In this document: one piece after another, positions 4,753-24,715 of the stretch
Layout of the letters: every line of letters starts with the position of its first letter
Numbering within the stretch: position 1 is the stretch's first letter
IMG/VR virus record: IMGVR_UViG_3300013426_000029
Span: 27,134 to 91,133 of that record
Source of the DNA: a virus
Lineage: Duplodnaviria > Caudoviricetes
Length of the DNA: 64,000 nucleotides
Strand: one strand, 5' to 3'
Notes under the pieces: model-generated
Database searches by the model: none
Told to the model about the DNA's origin: nothing
Seen by the model: the letters and a program-made list of their open reading frames with translations, nothing else
Program-made: the position numbers and the translations under genes

Positions 4753-4955
4753 TGGAATTTAATAAATTAAATTCAGTAACTGATAAACTAGGAAAATACT
4801 TTTATACTAGTAATGATGATTATATTACTGTTACTAAATGGAGTAATGGAGAAGGATATGATATAGATTTAAATGGAAAACTTGTTCAACTTCATGAATG
4901 TGAATTAGATGCTATTAATTATTTAGTTCAAACATTACGATATGAAGAAAAGTGA
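4752..4955 (+). CDS. Hypothetical protein
   Basis: ORF translationally coupled to both neighbours. Confidence 0.65.
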   Translation: MEFNKLNSVTDKLGKYFYTSNDDYITVTKWSNGEGYDIDLNGKLVQLHECELDAINYLVQTLRYEEK

Positions 4956-5253
4956 TTTTTGTAAAGTAGCTACAACAATATTAACAATAGAAGATTTCTT
5001 TGATAAATCTTTTAAGTTAAATATAGATTTAATATCTTCTTCGGTTTCAGACTATTATGTTATTTCAAGTATCTTATTTGAAACTAATTACGGTATTAAA
5101 GGTAAAGAATTCCTTGATTGGTGGTTTTATGAAAGAGATACAAACAAATCCACAAAAGAACAATTATGGGATGAAAATGGAGCTCCTATAGATGTAGACT
5201 CTATTTTATCTTTATATCAATATATGGAAGATAATTATAGAAATAATTGTTAA
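4942..5253 (+). CDS. Hypothetical protein
   Basis: 103-aa ORF in operon. Confidence 0.65.
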   Translation: MKKSDFCKVATTILTIEDFFDKSFKLNIDLISSSVSDYYVISSILFETNYGIKGKEFLDWWFYERDTNKSTKEQLWDENGAPIDVDSILSLYQYMEDNYRNNC

Positions 5254-5265
5254 ATTAAATAATTT

Positions 5266-5590
5266 ATAGTATATTTGACTTTGACGTAGTGCTTCTTTGC
5301 AGATCAGTTCTAGCACATAATAAACATTAGAACCGTGCGTGTATTCGCTTGTCAAAGCTAACTGCCCTAGGAATCCCGCTCTGTCTTTGGCCCTGACAAC
5401 GAGTGCTGGTATAAATCGGGGCGTGCCCAGCATCACAGTGTGTATACATTGGTTAGTAGCGATGACTCCTTAGTGAAAGTCTCAGACTTTTAACGAAAAT
5501 AGTACCTAAGAAGGGGAAGGAGTTCAAGTTGGCATATATCAATAGAGTAAAAATTGATATTACCAGCATAGGGGGCCCTATATACTATTG
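5266..5590 (+). ncRNA. Candidate structured non-coding RNA (about 320 nt), family unknown
   Basis: GC-rich intergenic island with complementary segments: 5266-5274/5580-5588, 5279-5285/5351-5357, 5307-5312/5328-5333, 5404-5411/5561-5568, 5465-5471/5517-5523, hairpins 5476-5490 and 5536-5560; followed by a terminator. Confidence 0.65.
5270..5277 (+). promoter_or_regulatory. Bacteroidota-type -7 promoter element (TAnnTTTG)
   Basis: TATATTTG at the 5' edge of the GC-rich island; ATTG about 20 nt upstream could be the -33 element. Confidence 0.4.
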
Positions 5591-5597
5591 TTAATTC

Positions 5598-5637
5598 AGA
5601 TAAGTCCTAAGTATTTTCTTAGGACTTATCTTTTTTT
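5598..5637 (+). terminator. Intrinsic terminator
   Basis: AGATAAGTCCTAAG-TATTTT-CTTAGGACTTATCT perfect stem followed by a T run. Confidence 0.85.
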
Positions 5638-5645
5638 ATCTATTT

Positions 5646-6863
5646 ATGATTGAATATTTATTAGGAAAAAGTTCTGCTGGTAAATTTAGATTTGCCGTTA
5701 TTGAATGTAACGAACAATGGAGTGAACCCGATAAAGGCTATGTTATTCAACGTAGTTATGGGCAAGTAGGCGGTAAAACAACTTTATCTCCTAAGATTAT
5801 TGTAGATAGAACTAAACAGAAAAGAAATTGGAAGGAACAATATACTTTACAATTTAATTCGGAATTAAAGAAATTTCTAGATAAGGGTTATATCAAAGTA
5901 TCTAAGCATCCTAATGAGTATACAAATGAAGAACTTAATTCTATCTTCGGTGAAGTTAAAACTAATCAATATGGAGTAATTAAACCTATGCTAGCTAAGC
6001 AAGCCGATAAAGTTACTAATAAAAAGATATTTGATAATGTTTGGATAGCTTCAAAAAAATTAGATGGCGTAAGATGTCTTATGTACTATAAAGATGGAGA
6101 AATACTTACTGCTTCTAGAGGTGGAGAAACATATCAACCATCTACAGTACATATTCGTAATGATGAACGGTTATTAAATTACTTTAAAAATAATCCAACT
6201 CATATTTTAGATGGGGAATTATTTAAAAGATTTAAGAGCCTTCAGCAAATTAGTGGTGCTGCTAGATTAGAAAAGAATGCTTATGATTGTGAATGGCTTC
6301 AATACTGGATATACGATGTATATGATACTTCTAATCATGATTGGAAAGCTGAAGATAGAATAAAACATCTTCTTAATAGTTCAATTACTTATAATATTCC
6401 ATTATATGCAGATACTTCCATGGATGAAGAAGATAGTAATATATTTATATTAATGCAAGAATCTGTTTCTGGTTGGGATAATATAGATAAATTACACGAT
6501 CAATTTGTAAATGAAGGATTTGAAGGTGTAGTAATTAGAAATCCAGATAAACCTTACAAACCAGGAGGTCGTACAAATGATATGATTAAAGTAAAGAAAT
6601 ATAAATCTGAAGATTTTAAAGTAATAGGATATAAACTAGGTCTTAGAGGTTCTGAAGATATGACTTTTACTTGTGAATTAGAAGATGGTAGAACATTTGA
6701 AGCAATGCCTTGTGGAACAAGAGAACAGAAAGTAGAATATGTTAAGAATTTTGATTCTAAATATAAAGGACATAAAGCAGAATGTACTTTCTTTAATTAT
6801 TCAGATGATGGAATTCCTACTCAACCTAAATTAAGAATCTTTAGATTTGACTTAGAGAAATGA
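5646..6863 (+). CDS. lig: ATP-dependent DNA ligase
   Basis: KPMLA, KLDGVR (adenylated Lys), LDGE, EGVVIR, MIKVK motifs plus C-terminal OB fold. Confidence 0.93.
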   Translation: MIEYLLGKSSAGKFRFAVIECNEQWSEPDKGYVIQRSYGQVGGKTTLSPKIIVDRTKQKRNWKEQYTLQFNSELKKFLDKGYIKVSKHPNEYTNEELNSIFGEVKTNQYGVIKPMLAKQADKVTNKKIFDNVWIASKKLDGVRCLMYYKDGEILTASRGGETYQPSTVHIRNDERLLNYFKNNPTHILDGELFKRFKSLQQISGAARLEKNAYDCEWLQYWIYDVYDTSNHDWKAEDRIKHLLNSSITYNIPLYADTSMDEEDSNIFILMQESVSGWDNIDKLHDQFVNEGFEGVVIRNPDKPYKPGGRTNDMIKVKKYKSEDFKVIGYKLGLRGSEDMTFTCELEDGRTFEAMPCGTREQKVEYVKNFDSKYKGHKAECTFFNYSDDGIPTQPKLRIFRFDLEK

Positions 6864-8749
6864 TAATTAAAAACAATATAGTATTTGTTTATGATATAGA
6901 AATATTTCCTAATTTATTTCATTGTACTATAAAAGATACAGAATCTAAACAATTATATTTCTTTGAAATATCTGCGAGAAAGAAACAGGCAAAAGAGCTT
7001 GTTTCTTTCTTTTTGACTAAAGGTAGATTATTTTGTGGATATAATAATATACATTATGACAATCCAATTATTAATTTTTTAATTGATAAAAAAAATTCTT
7101 TAGATAGTATCTCTTGGTATCATATGTGTAATGTATTATTTCAATTAAGTAATTTAATTATAAATAGTGAACCAGGAAAATATAACAAATGGAGTAAGTG
7201 GAAGTATGCTAATAATTATCCTACACTTGATTTATTAACTATGTTATATTCTTCTAAACTAAGAGTTGGTTTAAAAGAAATGCAAATAACAATGAAATTT
7301 CATAATGTTCAAGAGTATGATGGAGATTTTAGTAAACCATTACCTATATCGGAAATAGATCATCTAATACAATATAATATTAATGATGTAGAAAGTACTG
7401 AAGAATTACTATATAGATGTAAAGCAGATATAGATTTAAGATTAGGTATTGAACAAGAATACGGAGTTGATGTTCTATCTAAAGATGGAATGACAATTGG
7501 TATGGAGATTATTAAACAGAAGTATCTTGAAAGAACTGGAAAAGAATGGAAAGATATTAAAGATCTAAGAGATGCTTGTGATTTAATTCCATTAAAAGAT
7601 GTTATATTTAATAATATACATTTTAAAACTAAACAATTACAAGATATTCTATCTTGGTTAAAAACATTAACTGTAGACCCAGGTAGAAAAGGATTAGAAA
7701 AACATTTCTTATTAGATAATCTTGAAATATCTTTAGGTGTAGGTGGTGTTCACTCTGTTAATACTCCTACTATATTTAAAGAAGATGATACTTGGAGTAT
7801 TAGTGATGTGGATGTTGCTTCGCTATATCCAAGTTTAATTTGTAGTTATAATCTATATCCACCACAATTAGGAGAAGCGTTTCTTGATGTTTATTCAGGT
7901 ATTAGAAAAGAAAGATTAGAAGCTAAAAAGAATGGAGATACTGTAAAGAATCTTACATTAAAGTTAAGTCTTAACGGTCTTTCTGGAAATCTTCAAAATG
8001 CATATAATTTTTGTTATTCACCACGAACTGTTATGAAAATCCGAATGAATGGTCAACTAATGCTATTAATGTTGGCTGAAAGATTACTTGGGATAGGATG
8101 TAAGCTAATTCAATTAAATACTGATGGTATATTCTTGAAATGGCCTAAAGATAAAAGAAAGGACTTTGAACAAGTAATGAAGGATTGGGAAAAAGAAACT
8201 AAATTAACTCTTGAGGAAGATCAATATGAAGCATTTTATCAATTTGCAATTAATGATTATTTAGCTATATCAAGAGGATATTCGGAATCTAAAAACCCTA
8301 AATTACTTAAAAAGAAAGGATTATTTATAGATACAGTACATCTTGGTAAAGGTATGCAACCAATGATAATACCTAAAGCTATAAATAATTATTTTGCTAA
8401 TAATATTCCAGTTGAAGAAACAGTATACAATGATAAAGATATTAATAACTTTATTACTTATCAAAAGGTGGCTAAAAAATTTAGAATAGAATATAACGGA
8501 GAGTTAATAACTAATACAAATAGATATTATATCTCTATCAATGCTCCTTATTTATTTAAATGTGAAGTAGATACTAATGGCGCAAGAAGTAGATATATTA
8601 ATATGCTTAAAGGGCATGGTGTAATTATAGTCAATAATTTAGATGAAATTAAAGAATTTCCTAAAAATATTGATTATAAATATTATATAGCAGAAGCTAA
8701 TAAGATTATACAAAAATTTAAATGTGTACAATTGAGCTTGTTTGAATGA
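6860..8749 (+). CDS. Family B DNA polymerase with 3'-5' exonuclease
   Basis: YDIE, GYN..YD, YNINDV exonuclease motifs; DVASLYP, KLSLNGLSG, NTDG polymerase motifs. Confidence 0.92.
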   Translation: MIIKNNIVFVYDIEIFPNLFHCTIKDTESKQLYFFEISARKKQAKELVSFFLTKGRLFCGYNNIHYDNPIINFLIDKKNSLDSISWYHMCNVLFQLSNLIINSEPGKYNKWSKWKYANNYPTLDLLTMLYSSKLRVGLKEMQITMKFHNVQEYDGDFSKPLPISEIDHLIQYNINDVESTEELLYRCKADIDLRLGIEQEYGVDVLSKDGMTIGMEIIKQKYLERTGKEWKDIKDLRDACDLIPLKDVIFNNIHFKTKQLQDILSWLKTLTVDPGRKGLEKHFLLDNLEISLGVGGVHSVNTPTIFKEDDTWSISDVDVASLYPSLICSYNLYPPQLGEAFLDVYSGIRKERLEAKKNGDTVKNLTLKLSLNGLSGNLQNAYNFCYSPRTVMKIRMNGQLMLLMLAERLLGIGCKLIQLNTDGIFLKWPKDKRKDFEQVMKDWEKETKLTLEEDQYEAFYQFAINDYLAISRGYSESKNPKLLKKKGLFIDTVHLGKGMQPMIIPKAINNYFANNIPVEETVYNDKDINNFITYQKVAKKFRIEYNGELITNTNRYYISINAPYLFKCEVDTNGARSRYINMLKGHGVIIVNNLDEIKEFPKNIDYKYYIAEANKIIQKFKCVQLSLFE

Positions 8750-9600
8750 AGGCATATACTATTACTAAAAGTATTACTAATAGAGATAATAATGCATTAC
8801 GTATTTATTTTAAAGATATAAATAAACATTCATTATTATCTAAAGAAGAAGAATTAGATATTGTTAAAAAAATAAAATCTGGAGATGAACAAGCTAAGAA
8901 TAAATTAATTACTTCTAATTTAAGATTTGTTATTTCTATTGCTAAAAAGTATCAAAATAATGGTTTAGATTTAAATGATTTAATTCAAGAAGGTAGTCTT
9001 GGATTAATAAACGCAGTTAATTTCTTTGATGAATCTAAAGGATATAAATTTATATCATTTGCAGTTTGGTATATACGACAAGCAATTACTAAAGCATTAA
9101 CAGATACTTGTAGAGTAGTAAGAGTTCCTTTAAATCAAATTACAAATGTAAATAAAGTTAAACGTGCTATTAATAAAGTAGAATGCCAAACAGGTAAGAA
9201 AGCTTCTATTGAAGAAATATCTAAATTAACTAATCTTTCTTCTTCTAAAATTAATAATACTGAAACCGCTATAAAAACTTCAGTATCTTTAGATACACCT
9301 ATTTCTGATTCTGAAGGAGATTGTTTAATTAATATTATTCCAGATAAAGAAACGCAAGAGACAGATTATTTAGTAGAAAAAGACGATAAAAATAAAGCAG
9401 TTGAATATATATTATCCAAATTATCTCCTAGAAAAAGAGATATAATTAGAATGTCATTTGGTATAGGAATGTATCCTATGCTAAATGATGATATTGCTAA
9501 TTATTTTGGAATAGGTAGTGAAAGAGTTAGACAAATAGAAAAAGAAACAATTGCCTTTTTACAAAAGAAATATAAAAACAAACTTAAAGACTTATTATGA
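8746..9600 (+). CDS. RNA polymerase sigma-70 family factor (RpoD/RpoS-like regions 1.2-4)
   Basis: NLRFVISIAKKY, DLIQEGSLGL, KFISFAVWYIRQ, SLDTP, ERVRQIE motifs. Confidence 0.92.
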   Translation: MKAYTITKSITNRDNNALRIYFKDINKHSLLSKEEELDIVKKIKSGDEQAKNKLITSNLRFVISIAKKYQNNGLDLNDLIQEGSLGLINAVNFFDESKGYKFISFAVWYIRQAITKALTDTCRVVRVPLNQITNVNKVKRAINKVECQTGKKASIEEISKLTNLSSSKINNTETAIKTSVSLDTPISDSEGDCLINIIPDKETQETDYLVEKDDKNKAVEYILSKLSPRKRDIIRMSFGIGMYPMLNDDIANYFGIGSERVRQIEKETIAFLQKKYKNKLKDLL

Positions 9601-12600
9601 ATATAACTAAACGAGACGGATCGATTGAAAAATTTGATATTAATAAAATTATTAATGCTGTAAGTAAAGCATATAAATCAGAAGGATATACTATTAATGA
9701 TGATATTATAGATGAATTAAAAAATCTTACTACTACATATATTTCAGATAATATTTCAGTAGAAAAAATACAAGATGAAGTAGAGCAAATTTTAATGGAT
9801 AATGCTCCTTTTGATGTAACTAAAGCATATATTACATATAGAGAAAAACATAAACAATCAAGACTTATTAGAGAAAGAATTGATTATATGAATAAATATA
9901 GTCAATCAAACGATAATGCTGCATCTTCTAGTGAAACTGATGGTAATTCTAATGTTACCATTAAAAATGTAGCTAATCTTGAAGGGGAAGTATATAAAAC
10001 TACTAATAGAATCATTCAAAGACAACGAATGAAAGATAAGTTAAATGAAATGTTTCCAGAAGTAGCTAAACAATATGAAGAAGATTTAAATCATCATATT
10101 ATATATACGCACGATGAAGCTAGTACTCCTGTTTTAAAGAATTATTGTATGGCAGTATCTTTATATCCTTTAATAGAATATGGTACTTCTACAATGGATG
10201 GATTAAAGGCTTCTGCTCCTAAAAACTTAGATAGCTTTTGTGGCCAATTTGTTAATCTTGTATTCTTATTAAGTTCTCAATGTAAAGGAGCTGTTGGGTT
10301 TGGAGAGTTCTTTAATTTCTTTGATTATTATTGTGCTAAAGAATGGGGGCCTAATTATCATCTTAAAGAAGATATAATTGTAGATACAGATTATGTAGTT
10401 AATCCAAAAACTATTGGTCAAAAAATAGAACAATATTTTCAACAAGTGGTCTATTCATTAAATCAACCAGCAGGTAATAGATCATATCAATCCCCATTTA
10501 CTAACTTTAATTATTTTGACAGTAATTATTGGCATAGTTTATTTGATGATTTCTGTTTTCCTGATGGTAGTAAACCTGTATGGGAAAGAGTAGATTTTCT
10601 TCAAAGAAAATTTATGAATTGGTTTAATGAGGAAAGAACTAAAACTTTACTTACATATCCTGTAGAATCTATGTGTTTATTACATGATGGTAAAGATGTA
10701 ATTGATAAATCATATAAAGATTTAGCTGCTGAAATGTGGTCTAAAGGGCATAGTTTCTTTGTGTACTTATCTGATAATCCAGATGCGGTTGCAAGTTGCT
10801 GTTTTAGCAAGGATACTAAATTTTTATGGAAATCTTCTACAAGTGGGGTTCATATTAGTACCTTTAAAGAATTTCTTGATCTTCCCTATAAACAAACGAA
10901 AGAAAATTTTAAAGTATTTCATAATGGTTCATGGATAAAAGGTAAAATAATTTCTCTTCCAAATAGACAAATGTATAAAGTTATCACTTATAATAATAAA
11001 GAATTTATTATGAGTGATAATCATATTAATGTTACGTATGATGGAGAAAAAAGAACAAAAGATTTAACAACAGATGATTATCTTATGTTCAATACTTCGA
11101 CACTTTCACCTGTTACAGAAAATAACGAACATTTAACTTATGAACAAGGTTTGTTAATAGGGTTATTCTTAGGTGATGGAACCTTTGGAAATTATGTATG
11201 TCTTGATGGTAGTGTTCATAGTTTTCAACTCTCTCTAAATAAAGAAAAATGGGAAAAAGTACAAAACCATTTATCAAAAATTGGAGATTTTAGATTAGGT
11301 ACTATATATAATAATGTATATCCTATTCATTGTTATAATAAAGAATTAACTACATTTATAGCGAAATGGACTGGTAATGAACCTAATAAGACTTCTGCTT
11401 TAAATAAATCTTTAAATCTAGATTGTTTTTTACAGTCAGTAGAATTTAGGAGAGGTATTCTTGATGGTTGGTATATTACAGATGGAGGTAATTCAAATAG
11501 ATGCTATACTATAAGCAAACATTTGGTTGAAAGAATGGAAGCTTTATGTACTACATTAGGGTTGCAAACTATACTTAATATATCAGATAGGACAGATGAA
11601 GCTGTAATTATTAGAGGCCAAGAATTTAACAGAAATTACCCATTATATTGTCTTAGATGGTATGTTGATGCTAATCATAGATGCAATAAAACTAAAGATA
11701 AATCTTGGAAGAAAAAGAATAATAGTATATATTGGAAAATTAAATCCATAGAGCCAATAGAATATAAAGATAATATATATTGTGTTCAATGTGATAATCA
11801 AGATGAACCCTATTTTACATTACCTAATGGGTTAATTACTCATAACTGTAGATTGAGGAATGAAGTAGTTAATAATACTTTTAGTTCAACTACTGGACTT
11901 ACGGGTGTACAAACAGGTTCAGTTAATGTAATTACTCTTAACTTAAATAGAATAGTACAAGATTGGTATAAAGAATATAATAAATCAAAAGATAAGTTTG
12001 ATTTAGATACTTTGAAACCCAGTTTTAAAGCTTATTTATTAAAGATTCTTGAAAGAGTTTATAAATATCAAGTAGCTTATAAAACAATGTTGTTTGAACT
12101 TGAGAAACAAGGTATGCTTACTGCTTCAAAGGCTGGATATATTTCAATGAAGAAACTATTTTCTACTATTGGTGTAAATGGTTTTAATGAAATGGCGCAG
12201 TTTATGGGGTTAAAAGTAAGTAATAATGAACAATATAAAGACTTTATTGCTTATGTATTTAACATTATATCTACTTTTTGTAAAGAAAAATCTACAAAGG
12301 ATTATCTCTTTAATCTAGAAGTAGTGCCAGCAGAAAGCTTAGGTTCAAAAAATTATAATTGGGATAAGAAAGATGGTTATATTGTGCCAAATAATGAAGT
12401 ATTGTATAATTCTTATATATACGATGCACACGATCCTAATACTTCTGTTCTAGATAAGTTTGTATTACAAGGAGGTAAAGTAGCAAAAGCATCATCTGGA
12501 GGACAAGCACTTCATTGTAATCTAGAAGACCATTTAAGCAAAGAGCAATATCTTAAACTTATAGACTTTGCTATACAGAAAGGTACATCATATTTCACTT

Positions 12601-12791
12601 TTAATATTCCAAATAGTCAATGTGATAATTGTGGTTTTATTACTAAGCACCCAATAAAAAAATGCCCTATGTGTGGTAGTAATAATATTACTCAGTGGAC
12701 AAGGACAATTGGATACTTAAGACCAATTAAAGCTATGGATTATTATAGACAAATAGAAGCAAATAACAGAGTATACAGTAAAACAATTTAA
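9597..12791 (+). CDS. nrdD: Anaerobic (class III) ribonucleoside-triphosphate reductase with ATP cone; contains an intein
   Basis: ITKRDG ATP cone, IYTHD, SCCR after splicing, PAES, CxxC..CxxC Zn site, RTIGYL glycyl-radical motif. Confidence 0.95.
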   Translation: MNITKRDGSIEKFDINKIINAVSKAYKSEGYTINDDIIDELKNLTTTYISDNISVEKIQDEVEQILMDNAPFDVTKAYITYREKHKQSRLIRERIDYMNKYSQSNDNAASSSETDGNSNVTIKNVANLEGEVYKTTNRIIQRQRMKDKLNEMFPEVAKQYEEDLNHHIIYTHDEASTPVLKNYCMAVSLYPLIEYGTSTMDGLKASAPKNLDSFCGQFVNLVFLLSSQCKGAVGFGEFFNFFDYYCAKEWGPNYHLKEDIIVDTDYVVNPKTIGQKIEQYFQQVVYSLNQPAGNRSYQSPFTNFNYFDSNYWHSLFDDFCFPDGSKPVWERVDFLQRKFMNWFNEERTKTLLTYPVESMCLLHDGKDVIDKSYKDLAAEMWSKGHSFFVYLSDNPDAVASCCFSKDTKFLWKSSTSGVHISTFKEFLDLPYKQTKENFKVFHNGSWIKGKIISLPNRQMYKVITYNNKEFIMSDNHINVTYDGEKRTKDLTTDDYLMFNTSTLSPVTENNEHLTYEQGLLIGLFLGDGTFGNYVCLDGSVHSFQLSLNKEKWEKVQNHLSKIGDFRLGTIYNNVYPIHCYNKELTTFIAKWTGNEPNKTSALNKSLNLDCFLQSVEFRRGILDGWYITDGGNSNRCYTISKHLVERMEALCTTLGLQTILNISDRTDEAVIIRGQEFNRNYPLYCLRWYVDANHRCNKTKDKSWKKKNNSIYWKIKSIEPIEYKDNIYCVQCDNQDEPYFTLPNGLITHNCRLRNEVVNNTFSSTTGLTGVQTGSVNVITLNLNRIVQDWYKEYNKSKDKFDLDTLKPSFKAYLLKILERVYKYQVAYKTMLFELEKQGMLTASKAGYISMKKLFSTIGVNGFNEMAQFMGLKVSNNEQYKDFIAYVFNIISTFCKEKSTKDYLFNLEVVPAESLGSKNYNWDKKDGYIVPNNEVLYNSYIYDAHDPNTSVLDKFVLQGGKVAKASSGGQALHCNLEDHLSKEQYLKLIDFAIQKGTSYFTFNIPNSQCDNCGFITKHPIKKCPMCGSNNITQWTRTIGYLRPIKAMDYYRQIEANNRVYSKTI
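10800..11846 (+). mobile_element. Intein (349 aa) with LAGLIDADG homing endonuclease
   Basis: Starts CFSKDT, ends GLITHN followed by Cys(+1); internal LIGLFLGDG and ILDGWYITDG motifs. Confidence 0.93.
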
Positions 12792-12797
12792 TAACTT

Positions 12798-12818
12798 AGG
12801 TCTGATATCAGACCTTTT
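12798..12818 (+). terminator. 18-bp palindrome after nrdD, possible weak terminator
   Basis: AGGTCTGATATCAGACCT perfect palindrome followed by TTT. Confidence 0.4.
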
Positions 12819-13945: not shown

Positions 13946-14058
13946 TACTTATTTATAGTATAATTATAATAAAAGATACTGATATTTATAATACATTATT
14001 TAGCTTTTTAGAATAAGCACAAAAAATATATAAACAGCAGGGAAAAGATAAACTTATT

Positions 14059-14250
14059 ATGTTTGCTAGTCATATTAGAGATTATAATCTGCTTCCTAAT
14101 ACTAAAGAGTTCTTCAATACTTACTCTACAGAGTCTTTAATAGAGTATAGAAATGCTCTATTAGATATAAAAATGTGTTTAGATAAGTATCTTGATGATA
14201 ATAAACTATACAATTTTAATCATGTTAAAAACAACAGTAAAAACAACTAA
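14059..14250 (+). CDS. Hypothetical protein, possibly 5'-truncated
   Basis: Frame stays open upstream except one TAA at 14014-14016. Confidence 0.45.
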   Translation: MFASHIRDYNLLPNTKEFFNTYSTESLIEYRNALLDIKMCLDKYLDDNKLYNFNHVKNNSKNN

Positions 14251-14392
14251 GAAAGCTTCTTTAGATTTATTAAATAGAATTAATACATATCTATTTGAGC
14301 AGGAATATGATGAATTATCTGGAGTTAAACAAACAGATATTAAAAAACTTAAAGATGCTGCTAAAGTATTAGTTAATATTATAAAGAAGTAA
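14222..14392 (+). CDS. Small hypothetical protein (MLKTTVKTTKK…)
   Basis: Track ORF 14192-14392; ATG 14222 likely. Confidence 0.55.
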   Translation: MLKTTVKTTKKASLDLLNRINTYLFEQEYDELSGVKQTDIKKLKDAAKVLVNIIKK

Positions 14393-14410
14393 ATGTTACT
14401 AACCATTTCT

Positions 14411-14458
14411 ACCATATTATTCTCAATATTTTTATTGGGAGTAATATGGTTTTGTTTT
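14411..14458 (+). terminator. Possible intrinsic terminator
   Basis: TTATTCTCAAT/ATTGGGAGTAA stem with G-U pairs and a T-rich tail in an intergenic gap. Confidence 0.4.
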
Positions 14459-14462
14459 AATA

Positions 14463-19012: not shown

Positions 19013-20634
19013 ATGATATTAGATTCAAATAAAGTGGGTATTTGGTTTACTTCAGATACCCATTTTTATCATAAAAACATTATTAAGTTTGCTAATAGAC
19101 CTTGGAATACAGTAGAAGAAATGAATAATACATTAATTAACAATTGGAATGAAGTTGTTAAACCTAATGATACGGTATTTCATTTAGGAGACTTTGCTTT
19201 TACTTCTAATGGTAATTGGAAAAAACTTATTAATGAATTAAATGGAAAAATCTATCTTATATTAGGAAATCATAAAATTTACGAATTTTAACAAGGAAAC
19301 CTGAGGAAACCTAATTATATTTGTGCTGTAATAAATTTATTATTTTATGAGACAGCACAAATTAAACATTGATTATTTTAATGAGATTAATTCTCATGAG
19401 AAGGCGTATGTATTAGGTTTCTTATATACAGATGGATCAAATAGGGGAGATGGTATAATATTTTCACAGAATGTTGAAAGAATAAATATTCTTGAGAAGA
19501 TAAAGAAGGCTTTAGATTCTGAAGCTCCTATTAGAGAACGAGTTTCAGGACTTTTTGTTCTTGAACTGTTTAGCAAAAAAATGGTTAAGGACGTTGAACG
19601 GCTAGGTGTTGTTAGAAACAAGTCCCTAATATTACAATTTCCAACTAAAGAGTTGGTTCCAGAGGAGTTTATGTCTTCTTTTATTCTCGGATATTTTGAC
19701 GGAGATGGATACATTTGGAACGGTAAGAGAAAGAAAATGATAGTTAAAGATTCTTCACGCAAAGAAGGATTTAGAGAAAGGATAGTATATAATGTAAAAT
19801 TTACTTTTACTGGATGTGTATCCTTTATTGCTCCTCTACAAGAGTATTTGGTTAAGGTAGGTATAGTAAAGAGAAAAACTAAATTAAACTACTCCAAAGC
19901 AAAGAATACAAATAATTCTACTTGTGACAAAGTGTGTACTATGGAGTACTCCGGCAGAGGACAGATAAAGAATCTCTATGAGTATATGTATTCAAAAGCC
20001 CCTATTTGGTGCAATGAAAAGAAGTTAAAATTTGAAAAAATATTTTGTGCTTCAGATGAGAAATCACCTGTAGAAACTGTGTTAACTGAGGAAACGGCTG
20101 AGAGGCTAATCCTCAACCAAGCCTCTAATGTGGAGGAAGGCTCATCGACTATCCCTGAGATGGGAGTAGGACCAAGTGGTCCGAAATACACAGCCCCTAA
20201 CGAGCAAAGTCGAGGGTGTGAGATAGTCAGTTCTCATATGAATAAAGAAGTATGAGCTATGGGTATGAGATACCCTATCGGTACTAGTCTAACGAACTAG
20301 TATAAACACCAAGGACGAATTACATAGTCCGGGTAAATATGTATTAGATTTATTTGAAGGGGTATACAATCAATTGTTAATTAAAATTGATAATAGAAAA
20401 GTATATTTAAATCATTATCCTTTTCTTTGTTATGCTGGAACATATAGAGGTAAAGATTATAATACAATACAATTATTTGGACATGTACATAGTAATAAAG
20501 AAAATACTCATGGTAAAGATAAAGATAGATTAAAATATTTATTTCCTACTCAATATGATGTAGGAGTAGATAATAATAATTATTATCCAGTATCTTGGAA
20601 TCAAATATTAGAAATTATAAATAAATATGGCTAA
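19013..20634 (+). CDS. Calcineurin-like phosphoesterase, join(19013..19273,20314..20634), interrupted by a group I intron
   Basis: Exon 1 has SDTH, LGDF, GNH; exon 2 resumes D-ELHS… with NHYP, FGHVH, DVGVD; splicing restores GNHD in frame. Confidence 0.88.
19316..19323 (+). promoter_or_regulatory. Intron-internal Bacteroidota-type -7 element for the homing endonuclease
   Basis: TATATTTG about 24 nt upstream of the ATG, preceded by AGGAAACCT twice. Confidence 0.45.
19347..20255 (+). CDS. Intron-encoded double-motif LAGLIDADG homing endonuclease
   Basis: AYVLGFLYTDG and SFILGYFDGDG motifs; C-terminal codons run through the ribozyme core. Confidence 0.9.
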   Translation: MRQHKLNIDYFNEINSHEKAYVLGFLYTDGSNRGDGIIFSQNVERINILEKIKKALDSEAPIRERVSGLFVLELFSKKMVKDVERLGVVRNKSLILQFPTKELVPEEFMSSFILGYFDGDGYIWNGKRKKMIVKDSSRKEGFRERIVYNVKFTFTGCVSFIAPLQEYLVKVGIVKRKTKLNYSKAKNTNNSTCDKVCTMEYSGRGQIKNLYEYMYSKAPIWCNEKKLKFEKIFCASDEKSPVETVLTEETAERLILNQASNVEEGSSTIPEMGVGPSGPKYTAPNEQSRGCEIVSSHMNKEV

Positions 20635-20926
20635 CGTTTGTAATAATACACTTAAAGTATATTCTGATAATGAAAAGAATTTAGATTATGTATGTAAATT
20701 CTTTGATAATCCAAATATCAATTCAATTAGAGAGTGGGTAGATAATAACGAAATAGAATTTTATTTTGATTCAAAATGGATATTTCCAGAAGAATTAATG
20801 AATAAATTATATGAAGGATTACCAGATAAAAGTGATATTGATATGACCTGTTTATCAGTAGAACAAATTAATTTATATTGTGAATTTCATACTTGTGATG
20901 AAGAAGGTTGGCATTCAATAAGGTAA
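20627..20926 (+). CDS. Hypothetical protein, YubB/DUF1281 ferredoxin-like
   Basis: MAN.C.N.L and FDSKW..P motifs. Confidence 0.55.
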   Translation: MANVCNNTLKVYSDNEKNLDYVCKFFDNPNINSIREWVDNNEIEFYFDSKWIFPEELMNKLYEGLPDKSDIDMTCLSVEQINLYCEFHTCDEEGWHSIR

Positions 20927-20929
20927 TTT

Positions 20930-21172
20930 ATGAAAATAGTTTATAGTACTGGTTGCATTTCAGAAGGAATTACAATTGATAATAAAAATTATAATTCTTA
21001 TTCTAAAGAGGAAATAAAAAAGATTCTTCATAAAATGTTAGATAAGGTAGATAATATCGCAGACTTACAAGAAATTATGAGTAATCTATGTGAGATAGTA
21101 GGTTATTGTAAAGATCTTGGGCAATGCGAACAATGCGGAGATTGGGTGTATGATTATACTGTAGAATTATGA
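20930..21172 (+). CDS. Hypothetical protein with CEQC
   Basis: ORF in operon; possible metal-binding cysteines. Confidence 0.6.
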   Translation: MKIVYSTGCISEGITIDNKNYNSYSKEEIKKILHKMLDKVDNIADLQEIMSNLCEIVGYCKDLGQCEQCGDWVYDYTVEL

Positions 21173-21363
21173 AAAAAATATTATTATTAAGTTTACTTGG
21201 ATTATGTAGTTGTGATATAGTACTTACAGAAGAACCTATAACTGTAAGATATTATCCACAACCATATTATTATATTCCAGCTAAACCAATTCATCATCCT
21301 CCTAGGGTTTATCCATTAGATCCTCCAGGAAGATATTATCATTCTAAACCTCATAGACGATGA
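21169..21363 (+). CDS. Putative lipoprotein with Pro/Tyr/His-rich tail
   Basis: MKK, hydrophobic stretch and LCSC lipobox-like signal. Confidence 0.6.
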   Translation: MKKILLLSLLGLCSCDIVLTEEPITVRYYPQPYYYIPAKPIHHPPRVYPLDPPGRYYHSKPHRR

Positions 21364-21821
21364 TTGATATTAATAAACTTATTAGGGAAGCAATGAAATC
21401 TAATGATAGAGATGCATTGCGAACTTATCAAAACTTAAAAGCAGAAATACAATTAGTAAAAACTGCTAAAAATGCTAAAGAATATACAGAAGCTGTTGAG
21501 ATACAACTGTTGAGTAAAATGTGTAAAAAATTAGAAGATGCAATTATAAGCTTCTCAGACGCTGGTAGAGACGATTTAGTTTCTTCTTATACAATTGAAT
21601 TACATATACTACAAAAGTTGCTTCCTAAGCCTGTATCAGAGTCAGAGATATGTTCTGCTATTATATTATGGTGTGCTAAAAATGGGTATTGTGATGGTGT
21701 TACTGCTGATTGTTCAATCCCAAAAAAGGAAATGGGAATAACTATAAAAGCCATTAAAGATAAATATCCTAATGCCGATGGTAAATTAATTGCTAAAATT
21801 GTAAAATCTTATGTTGTATAA
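21360..21821 (+). CDS. YqeY/GatB domain protein
   Basis: I.EAMK..D, AGRDDL, E..IL..LLP, KEMG, ADGK motifs. Confidence 0.8.
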   Translation: MIDINKLIREAMKSNDRDALRTYQNLKAEIQLVKTAKNAKEYTEAVEIQLLSKMCKKLEDAIISFSDAGRDDLVSSYTIELHILQKLLPKPVSESEICSAIILWCAKNGYCDGVTADCSIPKKEMGITIKAIKDKYPNADGKLIAKIVKSYVV

Positions 21822-22293
21822 ATTTATATCTGAGGAACCTTTTTATTATTATGGTTCAAAGTTTGCTGAAAAGGGGAATATTTTAGAAACAAAAGGTAGA
21901 GATACAATTATTAATTTAGATACAGGTTGTAAAATAGAAGGACTCGATGAAGTCATTGGACAACTTGTAGACAGTTGTGAATTTTATCCAGAAGATATAC
22001 ATTCAATAGTAAGTAAATCGGGTGAAACTACAGCTACAATAGACAATGTTAATCATCCTAAACATTACACATGGTTAAAAGATAAGTGTGGAATTGAGGT
22101 AATTGATATAGTAAGACACATGAACTTCAATTTAGGACAAATATTAAAATATATTCTAAGATTAGGGCATAAAAATGATAATAACTTTAGTAACTATGAG
22201 AAGATATTATCTGATTTGCATAAAGCTGAATATTATTTAAAAATGGAAATTAATAGGGTAGATAAATTATGCAAGAACAATGGAAATCATTGA
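21811..22293 (+). CDS. DUF3310 domain protein
   Basis: DNVNHPKHY, EVID, FNLG..LKY..R.G.K, DL.KA.YY. Confidence 0.8.
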   Translation: MLYKFISEEPFYYYGSKFAEKGNILETKGRDTIINLDTGCKIEGLDEVIGQLVDSCEFYPEDIHSIVSKSGETTATIDNVNHPKHYTWLKDKCGIEVIDIVRHMNFNLGQILKYILRLGHKNDNNFSNYEKILSDLHKAEYYLKMEINRVDKLCKNNGNH

Positions 22294-23030
22294 GTAAATA
22301 CAAGGGTTTAATAGAAGTTAGTACTCTTGGTAGAGTTAGAAGATTACATAGAAAATCAGATATATTGAAACCTAAACTGGATAAAAGAGGATACTTATGT
22401 GTTCATATACGAATATCTAAATTGGGGATAAATAAAATGGTTAAAATACATAGGTTAGTAGCCGAAGCTTTTATACCTAATCCAAATAATTTACCTATTG
22501 TAAATCATAAAAATGAAATAAAAACAGATAATAGAGTAGGAAATCTTGAATGGTGTACCCATAAATATAATGTAAATTATGGAACAGGATTAAAAAGAAG
22601 AGCTTATAATTCTAGAAATCAAGTACACAAAAGTTGTCCTATATTACAATATTCATTAAATGGAGAGTTTATACAAGAGTTTCCTTCATTTAAGGAAGTA
22701 CAAAGGTATTTAGGTAAATCATATAGTAATGTTTGGAATGTATGCAATGGTAGGGGGATTAGTGCTTATGGATATAAATGGAGTTATAAATACATAGAAG
22801 GTAAAAAAATAGAAATTCCTAATTCCTATACTTGGTTTAAAAAGAATTATGGTTTAGATTTATCAATAATTTTACAAGACTTATCATTTGATATAGCTTG
22901 TGCCATTAAGTATATTCTTAGGTCAGGCCATAAGTCTGAGCAAGATGTACCTGATAAAGCTAAAGAAATAGAAGATCTTAAGAAAGCTATTTGGTATATT
23001 AATGATAGAATTAAAGAACTAGAACAGTGA
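22269..23030 (+). CDS. NUMOD4-HNH-NUMOD1 homing endonuclease fused to a C-terminal DUF3310-like domain
   Basis: EQWK..VSTLGRVR, HRLVAEAF, VNHKNE.K.DN…NLEWCT…N, QYSLNGEFI; tail AIKYILRSGHK…EDLKKAIWYI. Confidence 0.85.
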   Translation: MQEQWKSLSKYKGLIEVSTLGRVRRLHRKSDILKPKLDKRGYLCVHIRISKLGINKMVKIHRLVAEAFIPNPNNLPIVNHKNEIKTDNRVGNLEWCTHKYNVNYGTGLKRRAYNSRNQVHKSCPILQYSLNGEFIQEFPSFKEVQRYLGKSYSNVWNVCNGRGISAYGYKWSYKYIEGKKIEIPNSYTWFKKNYGLDLSIILQDLSFDIACAIKYILRSGHKSEQDVPDKAKEIEDLKKAIWYINDRIKELEQ

Positions 23031-23287
23031 AAGATATTATTATTAAAGGAAGATATAATACAGAACATTTATTAAAGTATATAGAAGATAATTTATATAG
23101 TTTAGAAAATTGTTTATATTTTAGAACTATATTAGATAATGATAATAATATTATTGCAGTAGATCCAGATAGCGGACCATTTATGCAAGTAGGTGATAAT
23201 ATATCTAACTTTATAGAAAATTCTACAGATAAAATTATAGAATCAATAGAATATAAAAATAAGAAAACTTTAATCAAATTAAAATAA
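23027..23287 (+). CDS. Hypothetical protein
   Basis: GTG start overlapping previous stop; AVDPDSGPF motif. Confidence 0.6.
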   Translation: MKDIIIKGRYNTEHLLKYIEDNLYSLENCLYFRTILDNDNNIIAVDPDSGPFMQVGDNISNFIENSTDKIIESIEYKNKKTLIKLK

Positions 23288-23289
23288 TT

Positions 23290-23640
23290 ATGGACAATGG
23301 TTATCCTATGGGTGCTGAATTTGATCCAAATGCACCTTATAATCAAGAAGTAAACGAACCGAAAACAATTAATGTAGTTATTGATTTATGTATTAGTAAA
23401 TCAGTACCTATTGAAGTTACTGATTATACTGTAGATGAAGATGGTAATCCTGATTTTTATTCTTGTGATTTATATGATGCAGTAAGTAATCAGATATATC
23501 TTCCTACGGAATTATCTGAAACAATTACCAAGTCTCTTGATTCAGTAAAAGATTTAAAAGAATTTAAGCACTATAATAAGAACGCTCTTATAGATGGATC
23601 AGATTGGGATATTGATGACTATACAATTACAGTAGAATGA
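23290..23640 (+). CDS. Acidic hypothetical protein
   Basis: YPMGA..DPNAPYNQ N-terminal motif common in phage proteins. Confidence 0.7.
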   Translation: MDNGYPMGAEFDPNAPYNQEVNEPKTINVVIDLCISKSVPIEVTDYTVDEDGNPDFYSCDLYDAVSNQIYLPTELSETITKSLDSVKDLKEFKHYNKNALIDGSDWDIDDYTITVE

Positions 23641-23894
23641 AATTAATTAAATTTGGTGCGGATTGGTGTAATCCTTGTAAAATACAAAATTCAGAATTTG
23701 AAAAGAATCCTCCTAAAGTAGAACTACAAATAGTAGATGTTGATGAAGATACCGATAATCTAGCTTCTAAATATCATGTAAGAAATATTCCAGTTATTGT
23801 TCTATTAGATAATGATAAAGAAATACATCGTTGGACAGGATTTACTAAAACATATCAGATAAATGATTATATTGATAATTTAAAGAAACAATGA
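23637..23894 (+). CDS. trxA: Thioredoxin
   Basis: FGADWCNPCK active site, VDVD, VRNIP. Confidence 0.9.
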   Translation: MKLIKFGADWCNPCKIQNSEFEKNPPKVELQIVDVDEDTDNLASKYHVRNIPVIVLLDNDKEIHRWTGFTKTYQINDYIDNLKKQ

Positions 23895-24715
23895 AATTAA
23901 TAAATCAATCTGTAAAGCAACTTAATCAAGAACTTACTCTAGAAGGGGCTATGAAGGCGGCTGAATATGCTGGAAGAGTATGCTATAATTCCACAGATAA
24001 GATTACTGAAGATAGCTATAAAGGATTTATTAAAGGATTAGTAGCTAGAGGACACATGAGTCCTCTAGCTCATGGTATTATTTATTTTGATTTTCCTAAG
24101 GACTTTAATAATACTTATCTAACTATATTAAAGCATAATAATTTTAGTTATACTATTAGTTCTAAAACTAGGGTATTTGTAGCTACTAATCTACGAGTAT
24201 TGTATGAAAATTTTAATCAGAAAGAAATAAATACAATGCTCCCATATATTACTAATGATGATAAGGGAATTAAATATAGTTCATTTGAAGTCATTACTTC
24301 TATAGGAGTAAGTAGAGAATTAAATAGGCATGCAGTTTCTTTAGTTATATGTGAACAATCTACTAGATTCTGTAATTTTAGTAAAGATAAATTTAATAGA
24401 GAGATTACTTTTATAAAACCAGAATGGTACTATAAGTGTAAGGATTATGTACAAAAAGAATTTGTTTCTACTTTAGGTCTTCTCGAAACTAATTATATGA
24501 ACTGGTTAAACCTTGGATTAAAACCAGAACAAGCTAGAGCAATATTACCTTTAGAAACCGCAACAAGAGTTATATATACGGGTTTAAATATAGATTGGTT
24601 ACATGTATTACTTCTTAGAAGTTCTAATATGGGGGCTAAAAATGTACACCCAGAATGTGCCGAGATAGCCAATTTGATTGCAAATAAATTTGATTTTAAT
24701 ATAAAAGACGTATGA
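23891..24715 (+). CDS. thyX: FAD-dependent thymidylate synthase
   Basis: AGRVCY, GH.SP, SRELNRH, EQSTRF, EQARAILP, HPE motifs. Confidence 0.92.
   Translation: MKLINQSVKQLNQELTLEGAMKAAEYAGRVCYNSTDKITEDSYKGFIKGLVARGHMSPLAHGIIYFDFPKDFNNTYLTILKHNNFSYTISSKTRVFVATNLRVLYENFNQKEINTMLPYITNDDKGIKYSSFEVITSIGVSRELNRHAVSLVICEQSTRFCNFSKDKFNREITFIKPEWYYKCKDYVQKEFVSTLGLLETNYMNWLNLGLKPEQARAILPLETATRVIYTGLNIDWLHVLLLRSSNMGAKNVHPECAEIANLIANKFDFNIKDV

Follow-up and report, generated by a model that had tools for sequence, protein, structure and literature searches.

A GC-rich stretch without an evident gene stands just upstream of the DNA ligase gene of a large crAss-like phage and ends in a strong terminator. 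What is made from it: a protein, an RNA of a known kind, a leader for the replication genes that follow, or an RNA with a role of its own? We examined this locus in the window, by which we mean the whole 64,000-nt stretch of DNA analysed, and in related phage records. crAss-like phages are among the most abundant gut viruses and their regulation is poorly known. A GC-rich island in an AT-rich genome is a classic route to the discovery of large ornate RNAs, and complex, strongly conserved RNAs of the size described here are rare, several of the known ones being ribozymes, riboswitches or large RNA assemblies.

A GC-rich gap between two complete genes

The non-coding gap measures 392 nt (5254-5645) and separates a 103-aa ORF (4942-5253, + strand) from the ligase ORF (5646-6863, + strand). 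The initial annotation had singled it out as much richer in GC than its flanks, and this was borne out: GC was 0.455 at 5300-5499 and 0.405 at 5400-5599, compared with 0.22-0.28 on either side. At the scale of the 91-kb record, the two top 150-nt GC peaks are the element in the gap (0.51) and window 20021-20338 (0.52). The gap had also been described as the largest of the early arm. This holds for the first ~13 kb of the window, in which no larger stretch is free of ORFs of at least 80 aa, but further on it is exceeded by a gap of 517 nt (13946-14462).

The genes around the gap were assigned by Pfam and PHROGs, and the assignments agree with the earlier placement of the element ahead of ligase, polymerase and sigma genes. 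The first gene after the element encodes an ATP-dependent DNA ligase (Pfam DNA_ligase_A_M, E 7.7e-20); 3' of it follow a DNA polymerase (6860-8746, PHROGs), a sigma factor (8746-9597, sigma-70 regions in Pfam) and NrdD (9597-12788, PHROGs). The neighbouring DNA polymerase gene shows 65-72% nucleotide identity to crAss-like phage records. The 103-aa ORF had no match in Pfam or PHROG; it aligns with 102-116-aa ORFs of relatives. The proteins on both sides, the ligase included, are complete and could be aligned end to end with their relatives, and no interrupted gene with rejoining exons, as expected of a group I intron, was found at the element.

The element matches no gene and no catalogued RNA

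None of the reading frames of the element was consistently open in table 11, with TAG read as Gln, or in table 4, and coding under TAG=Q or TGA=W was dropped for want of a frame. An antisense ORF of 74 aa (5212-5436, - strand), whose conservation and coding would have spoken against an RNA according to the initial annotation, was judged to be no gene. It belonged to no Pfam or PHROG family and had no tblastn match in GenBank phages; antisense ORFs of at least 60 aa were absent from the RNA region of G028 and G006, two of the three other lineages described below; and, by reading, both of the substitutions between two near-identical haplotypes that fall within it are non-synonymous.

Searching window 5000-5900 with the 4227 models of Rfam 15 at E<=10 returned just three chance-level matches (E 6.4-9), with RNase P and the group I and group II introns absent from the families hit, and nothing in the whole window reached a gathering score. 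The RNA region of the three other lineages gave no match at E<=10. ARAGORN reported 0 tRNA and 0 tmRNA in the 64-kb window. With the group I model RF00028 we detected no signal in the element at E<=10, while the same model picked up the phage's own intron. These results leave standing the earlier remark that the element bears no tRNA, tmRNA, RNase P or group I/II signature, and the Rfam comparison that had been proposed as a check now covers four lineages with no credible family match. Two side observations were made in these searches: the group I intron of this phage lies at window 20017-20248 (RF00028, 32.1 bits against a gathering score of 50, E 5.1e-6), and the 91-kb record contains four tRNAs, every one upstream of the window.

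In the literature searched we found no description of the RNA. A 25-mer of the core did not occur in the searched supplements of two catalogues of candidate RNAs, PMC10690425 and PMC8040213 (Fremin and Bhatt 2021), which represent partial coverage and are compatible with an earlier listing elsewhere in these two papers; nor did the names of four contigs occur in the searched, again partial, supplements of PMC10690425 (Fremin 2023). The portion of Yutin 2021 (PMC7886860) covered contained no mention of non-coding elements, ligase or sigma factor. The novelty claimed here is that of the RNA family, which matches nothing catalogued and is, as the following sections describe, a real structured family.

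Diverged copies are present in four phage lineages

A ligase-based search of viral contigs provided 28 loci; one is on a 4.6-kb fragment and the others are on records of ~75-225 kb. In BLAST searches of these loci, of 27 whole related records and of GenBank phages, the element found near-identical copies at most; among the 28 ligase loci the element was found only in L001 (record G001), 99.2% identical. Two exact 16-mers, searched in viral contigs, returned G001's own record and chance matches (25 in high-GC phages; L068). An 18-mer recovered one near-identical copy, L069, from metagenome contigs together with 2 chance matches, and one identical copy, L075, from species genomes together with 17 chance matches. 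L069 carries G001's three substitutions and has one T fewer in the U-run. L075 lies on a 17-kb contig that had been assigned to a MAG with the label Ca. Melainabacteria, a binning that does not constitute host evidence; it was also the sole bacterial match, and the element was not retained as a host-derived fragment.

Diverged copies came to light with structure-aware searches. R1, a covariance model covering the 5' domain, scored 31.4 bits on a 43-nt hairpin located between genes in G006, and a full-length diverged copy was recognised by reading around this match; a model built on a single lineage (R2) missed G006. A conserved-hairpin pattern added records G028 and G029, and the same four records came up again with a second, independent gapped pattern taken from the centre and the 3' part. 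With two looser patterns 7 more loci turned up; neither R1 nor R2 matched any of them. Finally, a five-sequence model (R3) separated five of the 30 records, all at E<=1.4e-33, from the remaining 25, none of which scored better than E 0.126. The element is no orphan: it occurs in 5 of 30 records of related large crAss-like phages, in four lineages and with one copy per record. In every carrier the RNA copy has a GC content of 0.41-0.44, against 0.27-0.30 genome-wide.

Compensatory changes point to a conserved multi-helix fold

Five sequences from the four lineages were aligned with MAFFT, and the consensus structure was derived from the same alignment that was used for the pair counts. RNAalifold proposed 74 pairs in 15 helices; 93.0% of 370 cells were paired, and G.U cells made up 48 of the 370 paired cells. 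The initial annotation had called for a test of covariation among homologs, and this test was positive: both sides had changed in 23 of the 74 pairs, compared with 8.0±2.2 in column shuffles (0/500). The 5' 163 nt alone gave 8 both-side-changed pairs compared with 2.7±1.2 (0/500), with 95.9% of cells paired. The family is small, and kinship could inflate shuffle tests, a point in favour of a decaying remnant whose resemblances would show shared ancestry; against a remnant, both-side changes concentrate in the predicted pairs and fell to 3-7 when partners were slid by 1-3 columns, a control that keeps relatedness. The fold thus appears, on the evidence of the alignment, to be maintained through compensatory changes.

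Folding energies were compared on both strands. The element as it stands in the window was more stable than shuffled sequences on the + strand (z -2.98, 0/100 as stable) and on the - strand (z -3.91); the consensus energy was -49.85 kcal/mol with 74 pairs in the forward direction and -40.72 with 56 pairs for the reverse complement; and the 5' domain gave z -2.43 on + and +0.23 on -. The structured RNA is on the + strand, the same strand as the flanking genes.

The conserved core extends over ~288 nt (5287-5574, + strand) in the five-sequence alignment and is closed by helix P1 (5292-5300/5566-5574). The initial annotation had instead drawn a closing stem between 5266 and 5588 and had noted that it overlaps the promoter element. 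A 9-bp inverted repeat does exist there (5266-5274/5580-5588), but by eye it is not conserved, and with P1 as the closing helix the clash with the promoter element disappears. Within P1, the first hairpin, P2 (5307-13/5327-33), consists of a 7-bp stem and a 13-nt loop, CACAUAAUAAACA. Its loop is nearly invariant, with one or two positions differing among lineages, and its closing pair is G-C in four sequences and U-A in G006.

A central multi-branch domain follows (5351-5463), composed of P4 (5351-53/5461-63), P5 (5357-63/5451-57) and P6 (5364-68/5418-22) plus the inner helices P7-P10; pairs changed on both sides number two in P4, three in P9 and two in P10. For the inner part (5375-5436) there are two competing models, one with P7 and P8 and the other with a hairpin formed by TGCTGG and CCAGCA. 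The latter sequences are those that had earlier been proposed to pair either locally or at long range, as in a pseudoknot or switch, and TGCTGG at 5404, CCAGCA at 5427 and TACCAGCA at 5561 are all present. G006 matches neither inner model well; by eye, CUGG in the other sequences corresponds to CCAG in G006 at related sites, and vice versa.

The third domain, P11-P14 (5464-5524), is built on an 8-bp P11 stem (5464-71/5517-24) with a nested hairpin at 5474-5492, and contains the invariant sequence ACCUAAGAAGGG, which holds a mini-hairpin (5505-07/5512-14). Both-side changes were counted in three pairs of P11, two of P12 and three of P13. The 3' hairpin, P15 (5530-5565; stem 5530-35/5560-65), varies in length, with ~60 additional nt in G028, and four of its six pairs have changed on both sides.

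Of the three substitutions between the near-identical haplotypes, two improve predicted pairs. A5402G turns a C.A into a C-G pair in P8, T5463C turns a G.U into a G-C pair in P4, and the third substitution falls in a loop.

A promoter-like box and differing terminators bracket the core

Conservation sets in sharply at TAGT(G/C)C, at window position 5287. In all four lineages a TATATT hexamer (5270-5275 in the window, + strand) ends 10-12 nt 5' of this motif, in surroundings that differ from lineage to lineage; the background frequency of the hexamer is ~0.002 per position per strand. This conserved position gives comparative support to a -10-like promoter element, whose activity we infer, and would place the transcription start at about 5281-5285. 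The initial annotation had pointed to a TAnnTTTG element at the 5' edge of the gap. It is indeed present (5270-5277), yet only its TATATT part is kept in the homologs, and the motif by itself carries no evidence, since it occurs 79 times in the window where 109 occurrences are expected. Scans with promoter consensus sequences performed at chance level, with 7 sites against 7.0 expected, TTGTTA-17-TATATT at 5247-5275 being one of them, and the -35-like hexamers seen by eye in the lineages are inconsistently spaced.

On the 3' side, the perfect terminator reported earlier was confirmed at 5598-5638 (+ strand). Its hairpin (5598-5631) has 14 perfect base pairs and a 6-nt loop and is followed by T7. 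No other terminator-like site lies in 4800-6000, where shuffled sequences give 0.4. A strong hairpin with a U-run lies 22-60 nt past P1 in three of the four lineages (window, G028 and G029). The terminators of G028 and G029 occupy the same place as that of the window and have another sequence; they share a common inner stem and have unlike outer stems. On its 3' side G006 has only a weak hairpin. The diverged homologs, the compensatory changes, the -10-like box and the differing terminators together argue in favour of the original description of the element as an unassigned structured + strand RNA with a putative promoter at its 5' end and a terminator at its 3' end.

The core is found at different junctions in different phages

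The genes that border the element differ among carriers. It stands between the 103-aa gene and the DNA ligase gene in the window and in G001, between a 104-aa homolog and a divergent ATP-dependent ligase in G028, between a 264-aa gene of unassigned function and NrdD in G029, and between a deoxyribonucleotidase-like gene and an exonuclease VIII-like gene in G006. In all four lineages it is co-oriented with the downstream gene, which is weak evidence for a leader because nearly all genes of the module are on one strand.

The ligase junction itself is empty in 18 of the 28 loci, where the 102-116-aa ORF and the start of the ligase gene share 1 or 4 nt (homology of this ORF was checked in 7 loci). 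G006 belongs to the phages with an empty ligase junction, its RNA sitting at another one. Other inserts were seen at the same junction, namely one of 940 nt in L019, homing-endonuclease-like with in-frame TAG codons, and one of 168 nt in L026; in L023, L024 and L028 an insert containing a LAGLIDADG ORF interrupts the ligase gene.

Sequence identities of the core and of the neighbouring proteins do not run in parallel. Among the window, G001, G028 and G029 the RNA core is 79-84% identical. Between the window and G028 the core reaches 83% identity, as against 41% for the ligase and 28% for the small upstream protein, whereas between the window and G006 the ligase is 68% identical and the RNA 53%. 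Since the core is better conserved than the flanking proteins, and since RNA and ligase similarities disagree, the RNA is the selected unit and has been shuffled among phages and junctions. With three junctions occupied and the ligase junction empty in 18 of 28 loci, the element behaves as a shuffled, moron-like cassette of promoter, RNA and terminator.

A discrete RNA is tentatively favoured over a cis-acting gate

We tentatively read the element as a gene-like cassette that yields a discrete folded non-coding RNA, an accessory "RNA moron" of a few large crAss-like phages. Transcription would begin a few bases after TATATT, and most transcripts would stop at the hairpin and U-run of 5598-5638, yielding a discrete RNA of ~355 nt. 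The effect of such an RNA would depend on its shape, with neither coding nor long antisense pairing involved; it might, for instance, serve a protein or RNA polymerase as a scaffold, or bind one of them as a decoy. The downstream genes would be supplied by leak-through of the terminator. A few sites of 11-12 nt complementary to the P2 loop were found per genome, in no common gene and within chance for AT-rich DNA. A comparison of G001 and three other carriers with four non-carriers for a co-distributed protein partner produced nothing convincing: three small ORFs, one of them homing-endonuclease-fragment-like and one apparently a spurious frame.

The term moron comes from the lambdoid-phage literature. 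Like a moron, the element lies between genes that are adjacent in relatives, has a promoter-like box and a terminator of its own, is patchily distributed and deviates in composition (GC 0.43 against ~0.27 in the flanks). It differs from one in that its product would be a folded RNA and no protein, and in that its promoter is putative. What counts against a discrete RNA is that its start, its stop and its abundance are all deduced from sequence features, and the RNA may equally be the leader of the downstream genes. In the window the U-run is 8 nt away from the ligase ATG. This leaves ligase, polymerase, sigma factor and NrdD without room for a promoter of their own, and they must be read through the terminator, a forced read-through with which a cis-acting leader agrees no less well than a discrete RNA.

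A cis-acting leader or gate, in which the folded 5' RNA would decide whether polymerase passes the terminator into the ligase, NrdD or exonuclease genes, is accordingly a serious contender, with something like a one-in-three standing in our judgement. It could work by modifying the polymerase, as in processive antitermination, or by sensing a ligand, a tRNA or a protein in the manner of a riboswitch or T-box. The order of parts suits such a device: across the four lineages the box, the P1-closed fold, a spacer of 22-60 nt, the terminator and a start codon 8 to ~46 nt on succeed one another, and the downstream genes, different as they are (which is itself a point against a gate), all serve DNA replication, repair or nucleotide supply. 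In G006, which lacks a strong terminator, the RNA would have to be a 5' UTR. A cassette equipped with a terminator and with its own means of read-through would also explain how the terminator is tolerated before essential genes, which in relatives show translational coupling. Several observations weigh on the other side. By eye we saw no conserved antiterminator pairing; a complementarity of 76% in the window (5496-5512/5616-5632) is, by eye, not matched in G028 or G029. The stems of the terminators, 14 perfect pairs long in the window, are very strong and lie outside the conserved core, which exceeds known riboswitch aptamers in size. Moreover, strong terminator hairpins also occur immediately ahead of genes that have no such RNA (138-175, and 14411-14450, ~12 nt before the next ORF), which suggests that read-through is general in the window. 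We slightly favour the discrete RNA over the gate, and regard the two as nearly tied.

Far less probable in our view is a selfish mobile element, for example an ORF-less intron relic, a MITE-like or a ribozyme-based element, that inserts at junctions and serves no phage function. Its attraction lies in the three different junctions occupied, each of which is empty in other phages, in the incongruence of the RNA and ligase trees, and in a phage group rich in mobile elements, including the LAGLIDADG inserts in the ligase gene, the L019 insert and the group I intron. The window also carries an 8-nt direct repeat, ATTGTTAA, at 5246 and 5587 besides the 9-bp inverted repeat, but by eye neither is seen at the ends of the homologs, and both were dropped as transposon ends. 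Unlike a MITE or another transposon, the element is single-copy. Searches for group I or II introns gave no signal in it at E<=10, and it is placed between complete genes, not within one; an endonuclease, a transposase or a reverse transcriptase adjoins it in none of the four contexts, and the conserved box and terminators indicate expression as a unit.

Least probable of all, a replication element acting as DNA or primed by RNA (an origin with a primer transcript), or else the decaying remnant considered above, could draw on the location in the replication module beside ligase and polymerase and on G-rich purine tracts within the element such as AAGAAGGGGAAGGAG at 5508-5522, but an origin is hard to reconcile with absence from 25 of 30 related records, and a core far better conserved than its flanking genes is the opposite of decay.

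Relation to known RNAs

The HK022 put RNAs and the EAR RNA are processive antitermination RNAs, and the present element is ~4 times larger. It resembles them in being structured, in its place within a long operon or at its start with terminators following, and in preceding delayed replication and recombination genes; it differs in having no sequence or structure match in Rfam, and an action on polymerase is conjectural in its case. Riboswitches and T-boxes share with it a fold closed by a terminal helix and a terminator shortly before a start codon, strong in three of the four lineages, and the element, too, precedes genes that differ but belong to a single functional area. No conserved antiterminator is visible in it, its terminators are outside the core, and it matches no known aptamer family. 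A role as a gate on transcription would make the RNA a new portable device for timing, and an action in trans would make it a new phage accessory RNA, perhaps directed against a host factor.

GOLLD, ROOL and OLE, large ornate RNAs associated with phages and bacteria, measure ~500-800 nt. As far as the part of PMC12286853 covered allows the comparison, the element is like them a multi-helix, highly conserved phage non-coding RNA. With a core of ~288 nt it is much shorter; it has no Rfam match and no tRNA accompanies it in the 64-kb window. Some 15 helices and long invariant single-stranded blocks within ~290 nt go beyond what a simple regulatory hairpin needs. Such complexity leaves room for a bolder proposal, which we consider unlikely, that the element is the first representative of a new class of large phage RNAs, one that reprograms polymerase to pass the strong terminators that guard replication genes or that constitutes a new ribozyme or RNA-only assembly. 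Were polymerase reprogramming to prove true, the element would be a portable timing cassette, terminator plus antiterminator. In any of these roles, what appears to travel among the replication genes of crAss-like phages is a compact promoter-RNA-terminator cassette.

The group I introns of the same phages are, like the element, GC-rich structured islands. The element is set apart from them by its intergenic position, by the lack of an RF00028 signal and by its own 5' and 3' ends, which pair together.

Apparent exchange of the polymerase region downstream of the ligase gene

The window and G001, the record carrying a near-identical copy of the structured RNA at its ligase locus (L001), share about 99% identity until position ~6800 of the window, beyond which the two sequences diverge completely (window 6800-9860 compared with L001 4200-7212). 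The gene order differs: in the window, the ligase gene (5646-6863) is followed by a polymerase of phrog_1252 and then by sigma, whereas in G001 sigma comes directly after ligase and precedes a phrog_17 polymerase (DNA polymerase I-like). A passage of PMC7886860 describes DNA-polymerase switching in crAss-like phages, and the difference between the window and G001 looks like such a switch, with its breakpoint just 3' of the ligase gene.

Endonuclease-like inserts and a putative group I intron

Inserts were also found at ligase loci of related phages. In three of these loci (L023, L024 and L028), about 1.1 kb of inserted sequence containing a LAGLIDADG-type ORF interrupts the ligase gene; a search of these inserts against Rfam gave no group I match at gathering score. 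In a fourth, L019, an endonuclease-like insert (2061-2997) in which KYDYS motifs recur occupies the junction 5' of the ligase gene at which the RNA lies in the window. TAG codons occur in frame within the L019 insert. In G001, several ORFs at 20062-23967 resemble, as judged by eye, partial GIY-YIG/NUMOD-type homing endonucleases; these homing-endonuclease-like ORFs are common to the RNA-carrying genomes and present in few non-carriers.

A second GC-rich island of the window (19347-20350, GC 0.52) is probably a group I intron. The Rfam model RF00028 matched positions 20017-20248 with 32.1 bits (E = 5.1e-6), below its gathering score of 50. A 302-aa ORF (19347-20255), which may encode the endonuclease of the putative intron, overlaps this match at its 3' end.

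Coding of the late half of the window

Crass-like phages are known to reassign stop codons in their late genes. Because the stretch from ~29000 to 64000 contains many gaps of 1-3.4 kb free of ORFs of at least 80 aa under the standard code, such reassignment is suggested for the late genes of the window.

Other contigs and terminator-like hairpins

Among the contigs met in k-mer searches, L075 (17 kb), assigned by binning to a bacterial MAG labelled Ca. Melainabacteria, matches the element at 100% identity throughout its 392 nt. This contig is probably a phage sequence that was drawn into the MAG bin, and provides no evidence of host. L068 is an unrelated viral contig, matched by chance; at 690-990 it contains a tandem array of five or more copies of a GC-rich 59-nt unit, adjoining a non-coding stretch.

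Long-stem terminator-like hairpins were located on the + strand of the window at 138-175, 12798-12815 and 14411-14450. Two of the three lie just 12-37 nt 5' of the next gene start, a closeness resembling that of the terminator after the RNA (5598-5638).
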